Shown here: in pieces, positions 20,990 through 45,151 of the stretch
How positions within the stretch are numbered: the first letter of the stretch is position 1
How the letters are laid out: every line of letters begins with the position of its first letter
NCBI GenBank assembly: GCA_048939245.1
Contig: JBHLPR010000013.1
Span: 1 to 45,153, forward strand
Length of the DNA stretch: 45,153 bases
Reading direction: 5' to 3'
DNA from: Promethearchaeota archaeon
Lineage (GTDB): Archaea; Asgardarchaeota; Hermodarchaeia; Hermodarchaeales; Hermodarchaeaceae
Notes under the pieces: model-generated
The model's database searches: none
Told to the model about the DNA's origin: nothing
What the model saw: the letters and a program-made list of their open reading frames with translations, nothing else
Program-made: the position numbers and the translations under genes

Positions 20990-22270
20990 TTAATCTTTTT
21001 CCTTTCGAACCCGTGGTAGAATCTCTACCCCAAACTTATTTTCAACTGTGTGACTTGTCCCTCCTGGACCCTGATATTCACAGGATATTACCCCTTCGTG
21101 AGTACCGGCTTTTGTCGCAATAAGAAAAAGGGGGAATTGAACATTTTGCTGTGCGGGGAGGCTAATAATCCGTTTTTCGAGAGTTCCGGTTTGTAGGAGG
21201 AGACTCGGCGGCAAGGCTATTTTGATATTGACATCCGCCGCATCGCCATGACTGTCGTTTTCAACACGAAGGATTAGTTCGAATTCTTCTTGGGAATGAG
21301 GAGAGGCGACCGGTTCAGTGATAATAGTAAGTCGGGGTTTAGCAGCGGTGATTTCTAATTGGAATGGATTGGATTTGAATTGAAATTGCTGTTTATCGAT
21401 TTGGAAGACAGCGATGAATGGTCCAACATCAAAAGTACCGGGAAGACGTGGTTCTAACGTGAAGAGAATTTTGAATTTTTTCTTCGATTCACGAGGAATA
21501 TTGAATTCTTGGAGGAGCGCGATATTCGATGGAAGGAAGATTTGGATATCAAGGAATCGGGCGGGAACGGAAAAAGTAACCGCGATATGCCCAATAATTT
21601 GTTCTTTGATTTTGACTTCTTCCTTGTCTAAGGTTAGCTTCAATGTTGCAGATTCTGTAATTTGATAGAGTGTAAGTAGAGTTGAAATCAGTTGGTTGAC
21701 TGTTTCAGATTCATCAAACTTTGTGGGAATTTGAAAATCTTTAGGAACTGAGTCTCCTTCGATGAAGCGGTGCACAAGAAGGGAGGCAACATCATATACA
21801 GCTGTCTTAATTTTTTTCACTCCGACGCGTTTTTCGAGTTTAAATGCCTCGCGATATGTCTGTTTTGATTTCGCCAGATCATTGGCAGCTAAGAGCAGAA
21901 TGGTTTGAAGGGAGTAGGTTCGAATTAATAGCCTGTCATTTTTATTCCTTGTCCCGATACGGGCTACCTGGTCTAAAGCTGACGAGGCAGCAGTAAAATC
22001 CTGGTTGGCAGTTGCGGAATCCACGGCATCAAATAGGATGGCAGTTTCACGTTTATCGTCTTGTACCGCTAGATAGAATTGAGCTGCTTGTAAAAAGGCT
22101 TCATAGGCTCGTCTATAATCTGGAATTTTGTTATAATTGTGTCCAGCTGCAGACCATTCATCGGCAGCTTTACTTTCGTCTCCCTCTGCTTGATATCTGT
22201 GTGCACGTTTCTCATGTTTAGCCGCTGATTTGACCGGATCTCCACCGAAGAGGCCTTTTAGAAAGGACAT
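20990..22270 (-). CDS. Alpha-SNAP-like TPR solenoid fused to two Ig-like domains
   Basis: MSFLKGLFGG...WSAAG...AFLQAAQFYL helical repeats, C-terminal beta sandwiches (LRVEN...A.DV.I...LP...F.L.A.KAGTH). Confidence 0.65.
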   Translation of the reverse strand: MSFLKGLFGGDPVKSAAKHEKRAHRYQAEGDESKAADEWSAAGHNYNKIPDYRRAYEAFLQAAQFYLAVQDDKRETAILFDAVDSATANQDFTAASSALDQVARIGTRNKNDRLLIRTYSLQTILLLAANDLAKSKQTYREAFKLEKRVGVKKIKTAVYDVASLLVHRFIEGDSVPKDFQIPTKFDESETVNQLISTLLTLYQITESATLKLTLDKEEVKIKEQIIGHIAVTFSVPARFLDIQIFLPSNIALLQEFNIPRESKKKFKILFTLEPRLPGTFDVGPFIAVFQIDKQQFQFKSNPFQLEITAAKPRLTIITEPVASPHSQEEFELILRVENDSHGDAADVNIKIALPPSLLLQTGTLEKRIISLPAQQNVQFPLFLIATKAGTHEGVISCEYQGPGGTSHTVENKFGVEILPRVRKEKD

Positions 22271-25376: not shown

Positions 25377-26324
25377 ATGGTGAGCCTAAAATCTTATGAG
25401 AAAATCCGTAAAGCTCTTGAAAAAATTGGGTTACCAGGACAAGATGCTTATGATTTGCCAACAAGCGATAAACGTTTTCCAGATGGAGCCGGATATCGCA
25501 TCGAAATTTCTGGTGTTGAACGCCCTGAGATCTTAGAAGTGTTAATTGATGAATCTGATAAACGGGATGTGCCTGTTCATCGTCTAATCAGTGTAGTGAT
25601 GGGAGCTACACTCCTGGATGACAAAGAACTCAAGAAATTTGCCCAACTCGCACATGATGCACAAATGGAAGTCATCTTAACACCTGGTCCCCGAACTAGT
25701 TGGGATATCGGTCGACAACTTGTTACCTCCGATGGAATCATATCGGGTATGCGATTTCGGGGTGCTGACAAATTGGTAGAAGTCATTTCGGATATCAAAC
25801 GTGGTATCGAATTGGGTTTTCGGGGGTTTTTGGTTATTGATGAGGGGCTTCTATGGGCTCTAAACAAACTGAAGGAGATAGGAGAAATTCCCAAGGATAT
25901 CACCTTCAAAGTGAGCATTTTTGCTGGCCATGCATCACCCGCTGGAGGAAAACTACTCGAACAACTCGGAGCAGGAAGTTTTAATCCCGTCGCAGACATG
26001 ACCATACCTCAACTCGCAGCCATCCGTCAAGCCACTAATTTCCCAATTGACATTCATATCATGTTGATGCCAAGCTTTGGAGGCTTTAACCGATTTTATG
26101 AAGCCGCAGAAATCACACGATGCGTCCAACCAGTGTATTATAAGTTTGAACCCGGACCTAGCATGGCCTTGTATTCACCCTGGTCTTCCATTGATGGACT
26201 CAAATTTCTAGCCCGTGAAAAGGTCAAATGGGCTGAAATTGTTCGAAATCTCATCCAAGATAATTATCCGGAAGCTAAACTCTCGAAACTAGGAGCTAAG
26301 GATCTCGCTATCCCTCAACCATAG
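25377..26324 (+). CDS. Uncharacterised TIM-barrel protein (U32-peptidase-like family)
   Basis: LPTSDKRFPDGA.YRIEI, GPR.SWDIG, GFRGFLVIDEGLL, FKVS, GA.SFNP. ATG 25377 follows GAGG. Family call from memory. Confidence 0.55.
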   Translation: MVSLKSYEKIRKALEKIGLPGQDAYDLPTSDKRFPDGAGYRIEISGVERPEILEVLIDESDKRDVPVHRLISVVMGATLLDDKELKKFAQLAHDAQMEVILTPGPRTSWDIGRQLVTSDGIISGMRFRGADKLVEVISDIKRGIELGFRGFLVIDEGLLWALNKLKEIGEIPKDITFKVSIFAGHASPAGGKLLEQLGAGSFNPVADMTIPQLAAIRQATNFPIDIHIMLMPSFGGFNRFYEAAEITRCVQPVYYKFEPGPSMALYSPWSSIDGLKFLAREKVKWAEIVRNLIQDNYPEAKLSKLGAKDLAIPQP

Positions 26325-26348
26325 ATAACGATTAAGGAGAGTTGAGTA

Positions 26349-27833
26349 ATGAGGTTTAAACCAAGTGGCGTAAATCCAGCACTCATTACGCCATTTACCA
26401 AAAATGAATCTAAAGTGGATGAACCGGCTTTTCGTAAGCTGATTCGACATTGCATTGATGATCTTGGAGTCACTGGATTGGTCCCTGCGGGTACCACCGG
26501 TGAATTCACCAGTTTGAATATCCAGGAACACAAGCAGGTTATGAAAATTGCCATTGAAGAAGCAGCGGGTAAAGTGCCTGTGATTGCAGGTGCAGGTGCC
26601 AGTAGTACTAAAACAACTTTGGAGCTTGTAGAATATGCCAAAAAAGCCGGTGCAGCTGCATGTCTTGTTGTCACTCCATACTATATGCGTCCGACCCTCC
26701 GAGGTTTATATGAACATTATCGGCGGTTAAATGACATAGGACAGCCAATTATCCTCTATAATATCCCCCAATGCACGGGATTGGATATACCGTGGCAAAT
26801 CGTTGAGGATCTCGCTGATTTAGATAATATCGTTGGTATCAAGGATTCCAGTGGGCAACTTAAACTGATTCTAGCGGTCTTGGAAAAGGTTGGGTCTAAA
26901 ATCAACGTGTTAGTCGGCCACGACGAAGTGGTCTTTCCAGCTTTTGCTTCGGGGTGCTCTGGAGCAATACTGGCTAGCGCACAACTAATCGGCGATATTT
27001 GGCTTGATATGCTCAAAAAAGTCCAAGCCAAGAAATTCGACGAAGCAAGAGCTATGCAATTGAAGGTTCAAAAACTCACGCGACTCATTGTGGGATCAGG
27101 TGCAGCAGGAACAAAAGCAGGGTTAAACATGATGGGAATTTCGGTAGGTAAACCACGTCTTCCACTAACTTATGGCGGCGTGCTTACTTACGAGAATCGT
27201 GAAGAAATTCGCATCGAACTTGAAAAACTGGGCAAAATCAAAGGCAAGGCTGTGACCGTTGAGGTGGAGCCCAAACAACCCCTTGAAGCCCGTTTTGGGG
27301 TCTTTGGGTTTACACCGGAGCATGTGAAAGACTTCTCGCTTAAAGTTGGAGAAGGACTCGCAGGTGGCGGCGCTGAAGTTGCGCATATTGACTTGATGAT
27401 TGGACGTAAGGATGGCCCTGTTGGTTTCGCTTTTGCACAAGCAAAGGCTGCACCGAAGGAACGGATGGAGCCACTTCTTGCGATTCTAGAGCCCAATTTG
27501 ATGGTGAAGCCTGAAACGCTTCTAGTTCCTACAGTTGCTAATCGGAGTATGCATCAGGCTAGCCTGTTCGGAGGACCCGCTCAAACAGGTTGCGCGAAAG
27601 CTGTTGTAGATTCAGTTGAAGAAGGCATTATTCCTAAAGCCGTAGCTGACAAATTAGTTATTGTAGCAACGGTATTTGTCCATCCCACGGCAGTGGATCG
27701 TAAACGGCTCCTCATCAACAATTACAAAGCAATGCGACATGCAATCCGTCGAGCAATCGAGGGACGACCGAGTATCAAAGAACTACTTGCTGATAAAGAA
27801 TTTGCGAAACATCCATTCCGCTGGGGTCCTTAA
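26349..27833 (+). CDS. DapA/NAL-family class I aldolase fused to formaldehyde-activating enzyme (Fae)
   Basis: N-terminal: ALITPF, GTTGE, TPYY, YNIP, GIKDSSG. C-terminal: VGEGL.G.GAEVAHIDLMIG, PNLMVKP, GPAQ...AKAV.DSV.EGIIP, VFVHP, NY.A...AI.RA, HPF. Confidence 0.9.
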   Translation: MRFKPSGVNPALITPFTKNESKVDEPAFRKLIRHCIDDLGVTGLVPAGTTGEFTSLNIQEHKQVMKIAIEEAAGKVPVIAGAGASSTKTTLELVEYAKKAGAAACLVVTPYYMRPTLRGLYEHYRRLNDIGQPIILYNIPQCTGLDIPWQIVEDLADLDNIVGIKDSSGQLKLILAVLEKVGSKINVLVGHDEVVFPAFASGCSGAILASAQLIGDIWLDMLKKVQAKKFDEARAMQLKVQKLTRLIVGSGAAGTKAGLNMMGISVGKPRLPLTYGGVLTYENREEIRIELEKLGKIKGKAVTVEVEPKQPLEARFGVFGFTPEHVKDFSLKVGEGLAGGGAEVAHIDLMIGRKDGPVGFAFAQAKAAPKERMEPLLAILEPNLMVKPETLLVPTVANRSMHQASLFGGPAQTGCAKAVVDSVEEGIIPKAVADKLVIVATVFVHPTAVDRKRLLINNYKAMRHAIRRAIEGRPSIKELLADKEFAKHPFRWGP

Positions 27834-27988
27834 GCCAACTAGTTACTGTATGAGTCAAAGACTTCTCAACCTCAATTCGTTTCCGTCTATAATGATGAAG
27901 GCAGGATGCATCATTATTAGTGAAGGCAATATCAGGTAGTTTTTACAAAAAGTAATAAAAACCACAAATGGGAGCTTTAAGGAATTTG

Positions 27989-28972
27989 TTAGAGGATAGA
28001 TTTGATATTCCCAAGGAATAGGGCAAGAAAGAGGGCAGCTGAAAGTAAGTCAGCGGTGGTTCCTGGATTCAGTTGAGAACCCTGTTTACGGAGGTAGTCG
28101 TCGAAGGGTTCAGTCTGTGTAGCCCAGCTCGTTTCTGGCAGCTTCATAATTCTGGCATACACTTTCTGGGCGCGTTGCATGACATCTTGAGCAACCTCGA
28201 CGCCATTTTTCCGTTGGATAAAGGAGTCGGGGCGATTACTAAGCGCCCAAAGATAGGAAGCAAGAACAGCATCTTCGGTACGTGAATGCTGATTCAGCGC
28301 TTTGATCACTTGGGGGTAGAGCGTATCGAAGGTGTATGCAAAGTTCGTAGTATATTCAGAGGCAATAGAATCGTAGCTTGCGGCTAAAGCTTGTAAGTCA
28401 CAGAGTGAATATTTCTCGCGACGAATCAACTGAATAGTATGAGGTGACTGGAAATCAAAAGCCTGAGATGGTGGTTTCCATTCCGCTGTTTTGGGAATAG
28501 CGCCACCGGGACTAGCCACCTGTAGGGCGTGAATAAGTTCAATGGCATCTTCAACACTAGTATTTGCTAGAATCCGTTTGAGGTTCTGCTGGAGCGTGGT
28601 CCTCGTTGATCGAGGACGGGTAATTTCGTGTCCCGCTGCTGCAGTGAGTGGGACAAGAAGTAAAATTGTGCCCAGTAAGGTATTCTTTCCATGGGGCTCC
28701 ATTGAGGCCTGGACTGCGAGTCGGATGAGTTTCCCAATATGTGAGGGGGCATAATCTGCTGTACTAAATTCATAGCCCCACTTCGCACTTTGATGAAGGG
28801 GATATCCTAAGCTGTTGATACTAGCAACAAAATGGATAAATCGAGTATCAGGGTGATCCTTGTACCGATGCACATTGCCGGGTTTGGGAGTAAGAATGTC
28901 TAAGAACATGGCAAATTGTGCCTTCTCTGAAATGTCACACAGTTGCTCCTCAACCTTAACTCCCTGAACCAT
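27989..28972 (-). CDS. citG: Archaeal CitG-family triphosphoribosyl-dephospho-CoA synthase-like protein
   Basis: PKPGNVHR, NT.LG..LL..PL, PDSFI.RK.G, LNPGTTADL. Confidence 0.85.
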   Translation of the reverse strand: MVQGVKVEEQLCDISEKAQFAMFLDILTPKPGNVHRYKDHPDTRFIHFVASINSLGYPLHQSAKWGYEFSTADYAPSHIGKLIRLAVQASMEPHGKNTLLGTILLLVPLTAAAGHEITRPRSTRTTLQQNLKRILANTSVEDAIELIHALQVASPGGAIPKTAEWKPPSQAFDFQSPHTIQLIRREKYSLCDLQALAASYDSIASEYTTNFAYTFDTLYPQVIKALNQHSRTEDAVLASYLWALSNRPDSFIQRKNGVEVAQDVMQRAQKVYARIMKLPETSWATQTEPFDDYLRKQGSQLNPGTTADLLSAALFLALFLGNIKSIL

Positions 28973-35407: not shown

Positions 35408-36688
35408 ATGACTAGGGAATTAGAAGCTGCTGGATTAATCGTCAATCATAATCGTAGAGAGGATTTACGTTTACCCTCTACCCCAGACCGTGTGTGGATT
35501 TGGGATGAGACTTTACGCGATGGGGAACAAACGGCGGGTACGCTCCTTACTGTTGATGAAAAGATTGAGATAGCGAAGCTAATGGATGAAATTGGTGTGG
35601 CAGTGATCGCTGCTGGATTTCCGATGGTCTCTGTAGAGGAACGAAAGACCATTAAGCTGCTTTCGGAGGAGGGGTTTAAACAGGCGAAGTTAGCTGCACC
35701 AGCTCGTGCAGTGGTTGGTGATGTTCAGGCATGTCTGGATTCAGGAGCAGAGATTATCCCAATTTTTATTGCACCCAGTCGTCTGCGTCTAGAATACCAA
35801 TTGCGCATGAGTCTGGATGAGGCGATTCAGCGTCTTGTGCGGTGTACTACCTATGCCGTAGACCATGGGGCAGAGGTAGCCTATGTTGTGGAGGATGCTA
35901 CGCGGAGTGAAATTGATACTATTGTCAAGATATCACATGCGGCGATAGAAGCGGGTGCAAACAAGATCATTATTGCCGACACTGTTGGATTCAGTCGTCC
36001 TGCAGCTATTCAATTCATCGTCAGCCAAGTTACCAAACAGCTAGAAGATTTAACCAAAAAATCGTTTGCTATGGGTATTCATGTGCACAACGACTTTGGT
36101 CTCGCAGCAGCAAACACCCTTACTGCCATTGAAATGGGCGTTACATATCCACATGTTTGTGTGAATGGATTTGGTGAAAGAGCTGGCAACGCAGCATTAG
36201 AAGAGGTTGTGATGGCTCTTGAGATTTTGTATGGGGTTAAAACCGGGATTAGAACAGAGCGACTTTTTGAACTCTCTCAGCTCGTGGAACGAGCTTTTGC
36301 CATTCCAATTCCTGTCCATAAAGCCATTGTAGGTCAAAACGCGTTTAACCATGGTTCTGGAATCCATGTACATGCGACCCTTGCGCATTCATTGTCCTAT
36401 GAACCAATAGCCCCTGAAATGGTAGGCAGACAAAGGAGTTTTTATCTAGGGAAATTTGCGGGTCGCCATTTAATTGAATACATCCTAAAGAAGAACGATA
36501 TCACAGCATCAAAATCACAAATCGAACAAATAGCTCAAACCGTTAAGCACCACCATGCACAGCAAAAGAAGGAACAAATTTTGAAGCGATTTGATCAGTG
36601 TAAAAGCGAGTTTAGCAAATTGAAGGCAGATCTCAGTGAAGAAGAACTGCTTGCACTGGTAAAACCGATTCTGGAAGACAAGAAATAG
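35408..36688 (+). CDS. Homocitrate/isopropylmalate/citramalate synthase family (DRE-TIM), no C-terminal regulatory domain
   Basis: DETLRDGEQ, AGFP, EDATRS, ADTVG, HVHNDFGLA.AN, NGFGERAGNA, KAIVG.NAF.H.SGIH, YEP. Confidence 0.9.
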   Translation: MTRELEAAGLIVNHNRREDLRLPSTPDRVWIWDETLRDGEQTAGTLLTVDEKIEIAKLMDEIGVAVIAAGFPMVSVEERKTIKLLSEEGFKQAKLAAPARAVVGDVQACLDSGAEIIPIFIAPSRLRLEYQLRMSLDEAIQRLVRCTTYAVDHGAEVAYVVEDATRSEIDTIVKISHAAIEAGANKIIIADTVGFSRPAAIQFIVSQVTKQLEDLTKKSFAMGIHVHNDFGLAAANTLTAIEMGVTYPHVCVNGFGERAGNAALEEVVMALEILYGVKTGIRTERLFELSQLVERAFAIPIPVHKAIVGQNAFNHGSGIHVHATLAHSLSYEPIAPEMVGRQRSFYLGKFAGRHLIEYILKKNDITASKSQIEQIAQTVKHHHAQQKKEQILKRFDQCKSEFSKLKADLSEEELLALVKPILEDKK

Positions 36689-38377: not shown

Positions 38378-40468
38378 ATGAAAAAAAAATTCCTTGGACT
38401 TTGTCTTACACTGATGTTTTTTCCTTTTCTTAGAGGAATTCAAGTAACTGGTGCTAGCTCACCTGAAACGAGTATTCCCCCTCCCTCATATACATCACAT
38501 TCACCAATAGTTATTCATACTCCTGCGCAATTTGATGCTCAGGCAAGTGCAGAAAGCTGGCCTGGTGATGGAAGTAGTGGAAACCCGTATATCATCGAGA
38601 ACTATTTGATTGATTTGGCTGGTTCTGTTGGAAATTGCATTGAAATTAGTAGTCATGACAATGAATATGCGTTCTGGACCTATTTCGTTATTAGAAACTG
38701 TATACTAAGAAATTCGAGTGGAAGTGGTAATCTTGGTTGGGGAATTTTCTTAATGAATACGCGAAGACTTGGTGATATATACAATAATACTGTTGTTGAA
38801 TGTGAGAGGGGTAGTATAGCATTAGGTAATCATGGTGACGGACATTACAATACAGAAATTACCTATCAGCAAATTGTCAGAAATAACACATGTGATGGGA
38901 AAATATCTTTACAATGGGGTCGGAATAACAAGGTAATCAATAACACCTGTTATGATATTTCTTTATACTTTGGTGGTGGAACGATTGGAAACGTCGTGGC
39001 TAACAACATTTGTAATCGAATACAAACGGGTAGTGAAGATTTTACCATTGTAACAAATAACACTTGTGAAACTATTGCCATTAATGGTTATAACGTCGAT
39101 GTCACTGGCAATATTTGTGATTCCGCAACTGCTTACGGAGGCAATGTCGTTTTTGATTATAATTTTTATTCAGAGTATACAGGACCAGATGCAGACGGTG
39201 ATGGAATTGGCGATATCCCCCACTCAATTGCGGGCACCGCTGGTAGCTCCGACCAGCATCCTCTTATGATCCCATTTAACAACCCATTTCCAATCTGGTT
39301 ACAGTCCCCGTCAAACCAGATTGTTGAATTCGGAGAAGGTTTCCGCTATGACATAAACGCCACTGCGTATCCTCCAGGTTTGAATAGCATCACGTGGAGA
39401 ATCAATGACACTCACTTTAATATTGACAGTTATGGCGTCATCACTAATGCGACCTTCTTACCAATTGCTGAGTATAACATCTTTGTGACAGTTAACGACA
39501 CTTATGATCGGAATTTATCTGGCTCTTTCCTTGTTAAAGTAGAGGATACAATTTGCCCGAATTGGATTGAGACTCCTAAAGATAAAACAATCGAATTTGG
39601 TCAAGACTTCTACTATAAACTAAATGTCTCGGATTTATCAGGTATTCATAAGTGGGTAATCAACGATACTGTACACTTCATTATTGATAACAATGGTGCC
39701 ATCACGAATATAGTTGCTCTGTCCGTAGATGTTTATGAACTGGGTGTTGAGGTCAACGACACATTTGGCAACCTCTTAGTTGGCTCCTTTTCCTTAACGG
39801 TTCAGGATACTACATCACCTGCGTGGACAGATATACCGAAAGACCAGACTACAGAATACGGAGAAGCATTCGAGTACCGAATAACGGCAAATGACCTCTC
39901 AGGTATCGCTGATTGGTGGGTGAATAATACACTTTATTTCAGTATTGAGGATGGTTTGATTATCAACATTACTCTTCTAGTTGTAGGAACATATTGTCTA
40001 GAGATCCGCGCCTACGATACCAGCAACAATTTTTGTAGTGCTACTTTCAAGGTGATTGTAAAAGATACCACATCACCTGTCTGGATAACTTTACCCTCGG
40101 ACAAAACATTAGAGTACGGAGAGGTTTTAGATTACAGCCTTGCTGCCTTTGATGTTTCAGGTATTGACCACTGGACTGTCAATGATACAGAACACTTCGC
40201 TTTATTCAATGGCCGACTTATCAATATCGGCATTCTGGAAGCTGGCAGCTACATTCTTACTGTTAGTGCCTATGACCCTTATGGAAACTACTGCGCTGCG
40301 ACCTTTACTATCACTGTGCTTTCGCCTGAAACACCTCCTACAACTGAACCAACACTTCCAACAGGCACACCACCACTCCTCCCTATACTAGTTATTATTG
40401 TGGGAGTTGGAATTGGAATAACTATTACCGTATATGTTATTATGTCAAGGCAGAATAAAGACCTGTAG
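38378..40468 (+). CDS. Cell-surface glycoprotein: beta-helix (NosD/pectin-lyase-like), 4 cadherin/Ig-like repeats, TM anchor
   Basis: Signal peptide, HSPI.I, WPGDGS..NPYII, NNT repeats, DADGDGIGD.P, four ~85-aa P.W...P.DQ..E.G..F.Y repeats, Pro/Thr linker, TM. Confidence 0.85.
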   Translation: MKKKFLGLCLTLMFFPFLRGIQVTGASSPETSIPPPSYTSHSPIVIHTPAQFDAQASAESWPGDGSSGNPYIIENYLIDLAGSVGNCIEISSHDNEYAFWTYFVIRNCILRNSSGSGNLGWGIFLMNTRRLGDIYNNTVVECERGSIALGNHGDGHYNTEITYQQIVRNNTCDGKISLQWGRNNKVINNTCYDISLYFGGGTIGNVVANNICNRIQTGSEDFTIVTNNTCETIAINGYNVDVTGNICDSATAYGGNVVFDYNFYSEYTGPDADGDGIGDIPHSIAGTAGSSDQHPLMIPFNNPFPIWLQSPSNQIVEFGEGFRYDINATAYPPGLNSITWRINDTHFNIDSYGVITNATFLPIAEYNIFVTVNDTYDRNLSGSFLVKVEDTICPNWIETPKDKTIEFGQDFYYKLNVSDLSGIHKWVINDTVHFIIDNNGAITNIVALSVDVYELGVEVNDTFGNLLVGSFSLTVQDTTSPAWTDIPKDQTTEYGEAFEYRITANDLSGIADWWVNNTLYFSIEDGLIINITLLVVGTYCLEIRAYDTSNNFCSATFKVIVKDTTSPVWITLPSDKTLEYGEVLDYSLAAFDVSGIDHWTVNDTEHFALFNGRLINIGILEAGSYILTVSAYDPYGNYCAATFTITVLSPETPPTTEPTLPTGTPPLLPILVIIVGVGIGITITVYVIMSRQNKDL

Positions 40469-41782: not shown

Positions 41783-44700
41783 TTACTTGTCATCCGAATC
41801 GTCGATAATAAATTCCTTCTTATCCTTGACGATCTTCCCTTTGGGTATATCCTTAGAACGCTTTTCGCGGAAAGTCTGTAGTACTTTTTGGCGTTCTTCG
41901 TCACTCAAATCTTTGAGTTCTTCCAGAAGTTTTTGGCGTTCTTTTTCAGTAAGCGAAGGAAACTCCGCAGGCCCCAGCACTTCTTCAACTGTTTCCGCTT
42001 GGGGTTTATCCGCTATTGCTAGCGTCTGAAAGATTTCTTCCCAATCCTCTTTGGGAATCTTCCGTAATTGTGCGGCAATTCGTTCCTTCTCAAGTTTACC
42101 AAGTGTTGGATAGGTCGCTAACCGTGCCTGAAGTTCCGTTTCCAGATCCTCACTAATTTCTGGCTCTTTGACTTTTCTATCAAATCGTGTTCCATCGGCC
42201 ATTTGTCTTCTAAGGTCTTCGATGAACCACACACGTTCAGCTGGTGCGATTTGTTTCATCTGCTGGAATAAGTCTAATTTCTGCTCGTATTCGATAAAGG
42301 GAAGACTTTTCAATTTCGACCAAATCGCATCATCTTCAGCTTCTCGTTCGGCCCAATTAATTTCTGCAGGAATCACTGTTGGAGCAGCCGCAAGCCCCAC
42401 TGAACTATAATAAGACGCGGCAATTTCAGAAATTAACCCGGTTCTATCGGAAATTCGAGCACGTTCCATTTTAGAAAGACTGGGCGAGCCTCCCTTTCCA
42501 ATACTCTTAGCCATCTTTCGCATTTTACGAACCATCCACGGAATAGAGAAGACCCGCACATACGCAACCCAAAGAATAAGACCCAATATCGCAATGACTG
42601 CACCAATGGATACATACACCATAATACTACGCGTGAAGTCTGTGGCTCTAACATAGATGTAAATTGTGCGACTGCTGGGAGTTTTATATGGGAATGGAGC
42701 GGAAGCAGTGATCTGAATGGTGTGTGTTGTTTCTAGCAAACCACTATACCACTCAAACGTATAGGTTCCGTTATGATGATTAATCATTGGTTCCTCAATT
42801 CCCAAGGCCACAATAGTGATTGTCAAATCAGCATTAGAAATCAGCAGTGAATTATGGGTATCATTGAGCATAACACTAATTGTGAAATTAGTGCCGACTA
42901 GGACTTGAATTGGTTCTTGAAGAGGTACAATTTCGGTTGGAATTTCCTCGAGAGTGAGCCTGAATTCCCTTACATCTTGACCCATCGTTGGTTTGGAAGC
43001 ACTCACATAGATTTGATAATAAAATTCCACGAGAGCCGTCGTGTTAAGGATTCTAGTGTAGATACCAGAACCTGCATCAAAAAGATAACCAGCATCAATT
43101 TCTGTTCCATTTAGAAGTCTAAAATTGTAAGAGACATTAGCTCCATTAATAGGTACATTGTCGCGATCTGTAACAAAAGATACCGTGAGATTAAATGAAT
43201 CTCCAAAGAAGACGGAAAATTCTATTGGAGAAAGAATCTCCAATCGGGTTGCGGTAGGATTAATGGTAATTATAATTATTTTTGTTATTGAGAAATATTT
43301 TGTGGTGTTTGATGCCCGAAGAGTAACCTGATAATCAGGGCCCACACTAGCATTAGCATAGAATTCCACATAATAGTGACCGCTCCCTTGCCAATTCATG
43401 GCAACAAAGCCACGACCAGCCCAACTATATTCTACAATCGCATCATTAATGGGAACGCCCGCCAAATTTGTGACAAGTAATGAAATATTCACAAGTTCAT
43501 TATATTCAACTTCCCATCGTCCAGTGGCAGGCTCGATAATTTGCATATTCAATTGGATGCGGGTTATCTCAACTGTTATGAATATCGTCTTTGAGTCATA
43601 ATGAGGATATGCGAACTCAACTTGGATTGTGTGTGTCCCCACCGAACTAATTGAAGTGTTTAATTGTAGAAAATAGGTACCATTGCCAAAATCAGAAATT
43701 GAATAGTAACCGAAAAGCCAATCGATGGTGACAGTTGCATTTTTAATGGAAACCCCGAGATGATCGAGGTCACTATATGTGAACAAGCAAGTTGCGTTGG
43801 TTCCAATTTCCACAATTTGTGCTGGAGTATTAGCTTCAAGTCCTGTTCGGATTTGCCGTATAACAAAGCTTTGGAGATTATAATCTGTCATATAGTGTTC
43901 GTTAGTTGCAGTGATTTGGACAAGAAATCCTCCTTCGACTTCATTCTCTGTATATATAGTTAGGTTATAGTAACCAGAAGCAGCATCATAGATGGAGTCC
44001 CAGTAGAATATCTCCCAGTCGCACCAAATGCTCGCTCCGGATATTATCACATTGTGATCATCGTCATTGAATTTCAAGATGAGGGTGAGGCTTTCCCCCC
44101 ACGGAACAGACGTTGATGTTGATCCCATAACAATGGTATCGAGAATTGAAAGAGATGTTTGGATATCTCGAACTTGAAATACCACGTTTACCTGGTTAAT
44201 GTCATAATGCGTTTTATTGAATGTGAAAGTTAACGTATAACCTTGCGTTCCTTGAGGTACTAAAGTTGTGTTAAGAGTAATCGTATAGGTGCCATTGTCA
44301 TAATCCATTTCCCAATAATCCTGACCTTCATGACCATCCATCCATGAGAAGCCAATGGTTGCTCCAGGAATTCCATAGCTTGAATGATCAGTGTCATAAT
44401 ATTTCAAAATGATAGTGACATTGTCACCCCAGGCTACAGAGGGAGATTCAGCGTTACCAGAACTCGTTGTGTGGGCAGGACGAACTGTAACCTCATAAAG
44501 TTTGGTTTGCGTTTGATAATTTGTCTTATTGAATCTAATAATAACGGTGTAAAAGCCTTCAGAAATCGTTCCATTTAATGTAATAGTGTAAACTCCAGGA
44601 GTGAGTGGATTATATTCCCAATTTTCTGCGAAACCTGAAACAGTGATTCCAGCATTGCTTATACCAACCTCTTGTGACCCGCTTATATCGTTGAATGTAA

Positions 44701-45151
44701 AAGTGATAATCGCATTATCGTTATAGACAAGTTCGAGAGCGGTGGGCGTATAATCAGCGACAAGTTGGGTTTTTCGAGCCTCGATGATGAGGTTTATGCG
44801 AATAGTTTGGAGTGCATGATCTGTATAGGTTGCATTAACGAAAAGGGCATGGGTTCCGACAGGCAAAGAAGCCGTATTTAATGAATAATTGTAATACCCA
44901 TCTGTCTTCTCATCCAAGGAATAAACAGTTCCACCAATGAGGATTTTTACAGTTGCAGATTCAATCCCCGTTAGCGTATCAATATTTTCGTAGTATACTG
45001 TGATGTTAAACCAATTATCCCAATAGATATGAACCTCGTAAGAATCTGTTAGGTTATTGTACTCAGTCCACCCATTCCCAGTTCCGGTGGGTGGGTAATC
45101 AATATCGGTGCGAACGGCGTCTAGATTTGTCGCCCATGAGACGACGCTAAT
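41783..45151 (-). CDS. Very large Ig-repeat single-pass membrane protein with helical-repeat cytoplasmic tail (5' end beyond window)
   Basis: Frame stays open past 44917 to the window edge. Repeated ~95-aa units (W/YG.N.T...Y.D.D....I.GA...NGTY...LNT...G.Y), TM, ~250-aa cytoplasmic domain. Confidence 0.88.
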   Translation of the reverse strand: MSVVSWATNLDAVRTDIDYPPTGTGNGWTEYNNLTDSYEVHIYWDNWFNITVYYENIDTLTGIESATVKILIGGTVYSLDEKTDGYYNYSLNTASLPVGTHALFVNATYTDHALQTIRINLIIEARKTQLVADYTPTALELVYNDNAIITFTFNDISGSQEVGISNAGITVSGFAENWEYNPLTPGVYTITLNGTISEGFYTVIIRFNKTNYQTQTKLYEVTVRPAHTTSSGNAESPSVAWGDNVTIILKYYDTDHSSYGIPGATIGFSWMDGHEGQDYWEMDYDNGTYTITLNTTLVPQGTQGYTLTFTFNKTHYDINQVNVVFQVRDIQTSLSILDTIVMGSTSTSVPWGESLTLILKFNDDDHNVIISGASIWCDWEIFYWDSIYDAASGYYNLTIYTENEVEGGFLVQITATNEHYMTDYNLQSFVIRQIRTGLEANTPAQIVEIGTNATCLFTYSDLDHLGVSIKNATVTIDWLFGYYSISDFGNGTYFLQLNTSISSVGTHTIQVEFAYPHYDSKTIFITVEITRIQLNMQIIEPATGRWEVEYNELVNISLLVTNLAGVPINDAIVEYSWAGRGFVAMNWQGSGHYYVEFYANASVGPDYQVTLRASNTTKYFSITKIIIITINPTATRLEILSPIEFSVFFGDSFNLTVSFVTDRDNVPINGANVSYNFRLLNGTEIDAGYLFDAGSGIYTRILNTTALVEFYYQIYVSASKPTMGQDVREFRLTLEEIPTEIVPLQEPIQVLVGTNFTISVMLNDTHNSLLISNADLTITIVALGIEEPMINHHNGTYTFEWYSGLLETTHTIQITASAPFPYKTPSSRTIYIYVRATDFTRSIMVYVSIGAVIAILGLILWVAYVRVFSIPWMVRKMRKMAKSIGKGGSPSLSKMERARISDRTGLISEIAASYYSSVGLAAAPTVIPAEINWAEREAEDDAIWSKLKSLPFIEYEQKLDLFQQMKQIAPAERVWFIEDLRRQMADGTRFDRKVKEPEISEDLETELQARLATYPTLGKLEKERIAAQLRKIPKEDWEEIFQTLAIADKPQAETVEEVLGPAEFPSLTEKERQKLLEELKDLSDEERQKVLQTFREKRSKDIPKGKIVKDKKEFIIDDSDDK

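Follow-up and report, generated by a model that had tools for sequence, protein, structure and literature searches.

The only Fae (formaldehyde-activating enzyme) fusion mentioned in PMC11291895 is Fae-HPS, and the survey of archaeal fusions in PMC11237513, including its supplements, contains no mention of a fusion between Fae and an aldolase of the DapA superfamily. A second system of relevance is engineered: the aldol reaction that forms 4-hydroxy-2-oxobutanoate (HOB) and the transamination of this compound to homoserine both work in engineered Escherichia coli (PMC8879981), where HOB is called non-native. The stretch of DNA analyzed here, positions 1-45,153 of contig JBHLPR010000013.1 of a Promethearchaeota archaeon of the class Hermodarchaeia (hereinafter the window), encodes a single protein in which a DapA-superfamily class I aldolase is followed by a linker and a Fae domain (hereinafter the fusion; coordinates in the table). 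A published description of this fusion was not found in the openly searchable literature, subscription papers being outside the search. As judged from sequence comparison, the balance leans modestly toward the fusion being a two-site enzyme that links pyruvate to the tetrahydromethanopterin (H4MPT) one-carbon pool, most likely through HOB.

The fusion is a real gene. Its open reading frame (ORF) has no internal stops; Pfam DHDPS matches residues 5-274 (E 6e-68), Pfam Fae (PF08714) matches residues 333-490 (E 2e-55), and the score against the Fae model TIGR03126 is 193 bits, with a cut-off of 118. The AlphaFold model consists of two confident domains separated by a low-confidence linker (residues 303-329). 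The initial annotation had recognized both enzymes from short motifs, and all of these (GTTGE, YNIP, GIKDSSG, VAHIDL, GPAQ, HPF and PTVA) are found in the 494-aa ORF, with both domains far over the cut-offs of the respective hidden Markov models (HMMs). An assembly artefact, which the initial annotation had considered, is excluded because both Pfam domains are present in all of the best 120 database matches and the fusion has a full-length match at 80 GTDB loci; its closest relatives, 79-88% identical, come from metagenome-assembled genomes of Hermodarchaeota/Promethearchaeota. A scan of the window for promoters and terminators, a method ill-suited to archaea, gave matches at the chance level only.

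When counted in even genome samples, the fusion is widespread, being represented in 39 of 121 Bathyarchaeia genomes, in 37 of 151 Asgard genomes (spread over 9 of 25 families) and in about 56 of 251 genomes from the class to which one Chloroflexi (Anaerolineae) carrier belongs; in the last sample, almost all Fae matches lie in fusion-length frames that occur as pairs. Thus, about one quarter to one third of the sampled genomes of these groups carry a gene that many records name DapA. At one locus (L138:8702-10196, genome G124), the fusion is split over two frames (187 and 288 aa) directly behind hom, which represents either a broken gene or an assembly error. Many other Fae-containing frames in Bathyarchaeia are 450-530 aa long (e.g., G154:C48:87901-88377), compared with 390 aa for Fae-Hps; stop-to-stop lengths may explain these values, and further Fae fusions are possible.

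The database name follows from a score above the NCBIfam dapA cut-off (TIGR00674, 224.1 bits against 206.15) and can wrongly imply the diaminopimelate pathway of lysine synthesis. A true DHDPS (dihydrodipicolinate synthase) that serves lysine synthesis and carries Fae as a passenger would also accord with the best PDB matches of the aldolase domain, which are DHDPS, and with the detection of no other DHDPS-family gene in this genome, but this explanation is very improbable given the evidence from residues, phylogeny and genome content. In the alignment with E. coli DapA, Thr44, Thr45, Tyr107, Tyr133 and Lys161 correspond to Thr49, Thr50, Tyr112, Tyr137 and Lys165 of the fusion, whereas Arg138, Asp187, Ser204 and Asn248 are replaced by Cys142, His191, Leu208 and Gly251. 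The first of these replacements had been pointed out in the initial annotation (YNIPQCTG) and proves to be a general feature: none of the 228 fused sequences contains Arg in this position, which is occupied by Cys, Val, Ala, Thr or Leu, and the other three residues are likewise replaced across the set. In a tree of 46 rows, with few references and with archaeal KDG aldolases and HOGA absent from these, the fused aldolase domains form one clade (support 99/99) apart from DapA (100/99), NanA and YagE/YjhH. Among 51 carrier genomes, dapB was found in three, each with a separate dapA adjoining it, and a search of this genome (88% complete) found none of dapB, asd, aspartokinase, hom and thrB. Thus, by its residues, its own clade and the genome content, the fusion is not DHDPS, in agreement with the initial annotation. 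The window also encodes an HMGL-like protein of the homocitrate/isopropylmalate synthase family (35408-36688) that may start an aminoadipate or leucine pathway and bears on lysine supply without DapA in this organism.

Across the 228 fused sequences, Thr50, Tyr137, Lys165, Gly190, Asp192 and Glu193 are invariant, and two subtypes can be distinguished by the presence of His or Trp in position 191. The positions of His/Trp191 and Leu208 presumably line the aldehyde side of the active site, as in related enzymes, and bulky residues in these positions fit a small aldehyde substrate.

The Fae part aligns over its full length with Fae of Methylorubrum extorquens (1y5y, E 4e-32). His346 corresponds to His22 of the same motif in that enzyme, which we take to be the catalytic histidine, and is kept in 225 of the 228 fused sequences. 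The Lys of the NKVT motif is replaced by Thr395, a change that the initial annotation had noticed (PTVA) and that is shared by 225 of the 228 sequences; the separate Fae-Hps of this genome, encoded on contig C26, retains the Lys. The H4MPT pathway sought in the genome is represented by mch, mtd and mtrH, and mch is present in 43 of 50 archaeal carrier genomes. With His346 conserved and H4MPT genes in the genome, the Fae domain looks functional.

Duplicated copies of the fusion point in the same direction. In Anaerolineae, on one Bathyarchaeia contig and in some Asgard genomes, two paralogs are present, of which copy A has lost the His and the C-terminal tail and keeps the two central Fae motifs, whereas copy B keeps the His and the tail and has lost the two central motifs. 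The A-copy aldolase domains group together across bacteria and archaea (92/93), and so do the B copies (100/98). Fae active sites lie between subunits; given this and the complementary loss of motifs, the simplest reading suggests that A and B form a heteromer with one working Fae interface, which is probably obligate and the dominant form in Anaerolineae. The complementarity of the losses also suggests that the Fae site is under selection.

In the proposed mechanism, Lys165 of the class I aldolase would bind pyruvate as a Schiff base, a carbon-carbon bond with formaldehyde would be made or broken, and the fused Fae domain would release this formaldehyde from methylene-H4MPT or capture it, the net reaction being HOB + H4MPT <-> pyruvate + methylene-H4MPT + water. 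HOB would be interconverted with homoserine by transamination, or would arise from threonate or erythronate. Formaldehyde is probably the aldehyde that is coupled. HOB would be the simplest product of a pyruvate aldolase joined to a domain that handles formaldehyde, and the chances that it is the aldol are about even. From the equilibria of Hps and Fae, the coupled reaction is expected to be near equilibrium, so that its direction may differ from one lineage to another; for the heterotroph-like genome studied here, in which thrB was not detected, cleavage is no less probable than synthesis. A more specific version of this scheme, to which we give a little short of an even chance, is that the fusion is a natural, dedicated pyruvate hydroxymethyltransferase that would allow anaerobic archaea and Anaerolineae to make homoserine and threonine without aspartokinase, Asd and Hom, or to burn homoserine and tetronates into the H4MPT pool, and that in many bacteria would consist of A and B subunits sharing one Fae site.

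Gene context favors HOB. At the Bathyarchaeia locus L282:8938-12726 (G070:C7), the fusion is followed on the same strand by thrB, thrC and asnS in an operon-like arrangement; searches of the G070 genome detected neither hom nor asd, and the fusion occupies the usual place of hom. Elsewhere, hom is located directly upstream (L138, L139) or directly downstream (L033) of the fusion. Furthermore, hom is rarer in carriers, with the reservation that related genomes are not independent and the p-values are therefore overstated: it is present in 13 of 39 carriers versus 64 of 82 non-carriers in Bathyarchaeia, 8 of 37 versus 54 of 114 in Asgard, and 5 of 18 versus 9 of 12 in a single Asgard family. When only Bathyarchaeia with thrB are considered, hom is missing in 8 of 16 carriers versus 8 of 53 non-carriers. 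A second group of neighbors includes a split UxaA-family dehydratase (SAF + GD_AH), found near the fusion in 5 loci, and a LarA-family protein, found in 4; UxaA is present in all 17 genomes with the Trp191 subtype compared with 27 of 82 non-carriers. These two are a candidate tetronate dehydratase and epimerase, respectively. Dehydration of threonate or erythronate yields HOB, so that hom, thrB-thrC, LarA and UxaA converge on this compound.

The same UxaA and LarA neighbors are typical of hexonate and pentonate catabolism and could signify a cleavage activity toward a larger 2-keto-3-deoxy acid, like that of YagE, YjhH and KDG aldolases, with Fae as an uncoupled addition that serves detoxification, scaffolding or regulation through pterin binding. 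Asp192 and Glu193 agree with the NanA/YagE motif, the Lys of Fae has given way to another residue, and genes for aldehyde:ferredoxin oxidoreductase (AOR) near the fusion in 9 loci could remove other aldehydes. Nevertheless, we consider this improbable: the fusion is kept as one clade over two archaeal phyla and one bacterial class, the Fae motifs are retained even when divided between two paralogs, and the scores fall far under the cut-offs for NanA (137 vs 382 bits), KdgD (108 vs 374), HpaI (163 vs 397) and archaeal KDG aldolase (108 vs 390).

Several observations weigh against the HOB scheme. The homoserine and sugar-acid neighbors are found at only a few of about 140 loci and were noticed after the fact, and most neighbors of the fusion (trmI, an RNase J-like gene, citG) are unrelated. 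The missing hom may reflect mere auxotrophy because thrB was found in only 4 of 22 genomes with the His191 subtype, this genome not being among them. UxaA was not found in this genome either, and with both thrB and UxaA missing, neither a full threonine route through homoserine nor a tetronate route is evident in this organism, where a ThrC-family gene is present. The link to homoserine put forward in the initial annotation is accordingly favored by gene context across genomes but is not accompanied here by an evident complete route to threonine through homoserine; the source of HOB could be four-carbon sugar acids instead. Regarding the Fae domain, the nearly universal Thr in place of Lys implies that the carrier or the rate may differ, and a search of the one Anaerolineae carrier examined detected neither F420-type mtd nor mtrH. 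Finally, the only constant partner of the fusion lacks a known reaction, and the substrate may be a compound outside those considered.

This partner is the TIM-barrel protein encoded 24 nt upstream of the fusion, the spacing of the two genes indicating that they are probably co-transcribed. Barrel genes of two families are found within 8 kb of the fusion in 73 of 81 loci, namely, the family of the window in 13 and a 430-aa gene in 60 more; the latter is a distant homolog of the former (HHalign 84%, E 7e-6, reciprocal top non-self matches). Either family is also located near the fusion in 16 of 20 further Asgard loci and 16 of 22 Anaerolineae loci, and in Bathyarchaeia the barrel is present in 30 of 39 carriers versus 8 of 82 non-carriers. 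The barrel is a real, usual but not universal partner of the fusion. Its association with the fusion, suspected in the initial annotation, is therefore upheld, whereas an identity as a U32 hydroxylase of the Fe-S type (UbiU/TrhP) is not supported, given the lack of a Cys cluster: the protein has one Cys, and no alignment column contains more than 34% Cys in 77 sequences. Comparison with Pfam and NCBIfam yields no match, including Pfam U32; the structure model (pLDDT 96) has a generic TIM-barrel fold, for which CutC (Z 15.2), Mk0906 (Z 14.7) and other barrels are tied as matches, and Arg, Lys and Asp residues are conserved. No longer fused forms turned up in a search for them, an outcome of little weight. 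In Bathyarchaeia, common neighbors that were taken for dapB and lysA are actually trmI and the second barrel family.

Given that the barrel is the only constant partner and is also encoded, apart from the fusion, in clusters for the catabolism of amino acids and sugar acids, and that two aldolase subtypes (His191 and Trp191) exist, it could set a different 2-oxo acid or aldol for the same formaldehyde coupling, such as 2-oxobutyrate, 2-oxoisovalerate (giving ketopantoate) or a branched hydroxymethyl acid. This appears unlikely, if deserving of serious attention, because the residues by which the family binds pyruvate do not vary and the informative neighbors hom, thrB-thrC, LarA and UxaA point to HOB. 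Replacement of PanB by a ketopantoate aldolase, in particular, is unlikely since PanB is present in this genome, and no pan genes were recognized among the recurrent neighbors.

The barrel occurs in other contexts as well. At locus L224:8001-11840, a homolog 67% identical to the barrel of the window is the first gene of an operon with hom and AOR, after which come three genes of the metallo-beta-lactamase fold; Fae was not found in that genome, and the operon is a further hint of HOB. In two Hermodarchaeia (L005:5666-6811 and L006:3717-4853), a divergently oriented gene of the D-threonine aldolase/D-serine dehydratase family is inserted upstream of the barrel; a tblastn search found no such gene in this genome. 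More distant homologs are encoded on an Enterobacter plasmid (NZ_CP097174.1, L119:7910-14622; 29% identity), in an apparent gene cluster for small-molecule biosynthesis that also encodes a phosphotransferase, an aminotransferase and redox enzymes containing iron, and on a Thermomicrobium roseum plasmid (L118:3442-9933; 43%), at the end of a cluster of genes for a sugar ABC transporter, an enolase-superfamily protein and a metallo-beta-lactamase hydrolase, which suggests sugar-acid catabolism.

The convergent citG gene had been linked to the pathway in the initial annotation. It adjoins the fusion in only 7 loci of about 140, all from Hermodarchaeia, and is best treated as synteny and rejected as a pathway member. 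Among the other genes of the window, one (20990-22270) encodes a protein of 426 aa, with SNAP-like (PF14938) repeats in its N-terminal region, that is conserved in the Hermodarchaeia loci and is possibly a eukaryotic-signature-like protein. Two long ORFs encode a 1044-aa protein with a weak match to invasin domain 3 (41783-44917) and a 696-aa protein with no Pfam match at 1e-8 (38378-40468).

Table. Location of the fusion, its domains and associated genes (window coordinates unless a locus is indicated)
Feature	Position	Strand	Basis or remark
Fusion gene, 494 aa: DapA-superfamily class I aldolase, linker, Fae	26349-27833	+	ORF, Pfam/NCBIfam, structure model
Aldolase domain, residues 5 to about 298	26361-27242	+	Pfam and alignment
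Inter-domain linker, residues 303-329	27255-27335	+	Low confidence in AlphaFold model
Fae domain, residues 333-490	27345-27818	+	Pfam Fae and alignment
Partner TIM-barrel gene, 315 aa, distantly U32-like	25377-26324	+	Start identical to database protein P0121
CitG-family gene, convergent to fusion	27989-28972	-	Pfam CitG E 4e-60
LarA-family gene and split UxaA-family dehydratase (SAF + GD_AH)	L145:10396-13133, L151, L074, L081, L200, L201		Near fusion or barrel, Bathyarchaeia
Tandem A/B paralogs	L122:9072-12486, L124, L125, L227, L273 and about 50 further genomes		Complementary Fae motif loss

If the HOB scheme is correct, the fusion would join Fae-Hps and serine hydroxymethyltransferase as a new point of entry to or exit from the H4MPT one-carbon pool and would account for threonine synthesis in some genomes without hom. 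Synthetic methylotrophy, at present dependent on side activities, would also gain an HOB aldolase shaped by natural evolution. The engineered homoserine cycle would have in the fusion a natural counterpart of its key step, a reaction so far known only from engineered pathways.

Among the known systems, Fae-Hps (NF009833) resembles the fusion in that Fae is joined to an enzyme by which a carbon-carbon bond is formed or cleaved, in the logic of formaldehyde-H4MPT coupling and in its presence in the same genomes. However, the partner of Fae in the fusion is a DapA-superfamily Schiff-base aldolase rather than Hps, the aldolase comes first and Fae second, NF009833 covers residues 331-490 only (158 bits against a cut-off of 274), Thr takes the place of the KVT Lys, and a split A/B form exists. 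With DHDPS/DapA (TIGR00674, PF00701), the fusion shares the fold, the Thr-Thr motif, the catalytic Tyr and the Schiff-base Lys, at about 32% identity to E. coli DapA, and differs in the four replaced residues, the separate clade and the carriers that are mostly devoid of dapB. NanA, YagE, YjhH and KDG aldolases are likewise pyruvate-dependent class I enzymes, with the Gly-x-Asp-Glu motif (NanA) and with sugar-acid dehydratases often encoded nearby, but identity is 29-34%, all family cut-offs are missed, the clades are separate, and none of these enzymes is fused to Fae. The barrel shares with the U32 protein Mk0906 (PDB 5d88) the TIM-barrel fold (root-mean-square deviation 3.1 over 189 residues, 16% identity), and its Atlas look-alikes are partly labeled U32 (17-55% of members), whereas the tie with CutC, the lack of a Pfam U32 match and the lack of a UbiU/TrhP-type Fe-S site set it apart. 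The closest functional parallel would be the engineered homoserine cycle (PMC8879981), in which pyruvate and formaldehyde give HOB, as proposed here, and HOB is then transaminated and processed by homoserine kinase and threonine synthase; the aldol step there is a side activity of RhmA on free formaldehyde, whereas the fusion would be a natural class I enzyme dedicated to this step and equipped with its own C1-carrier domain.

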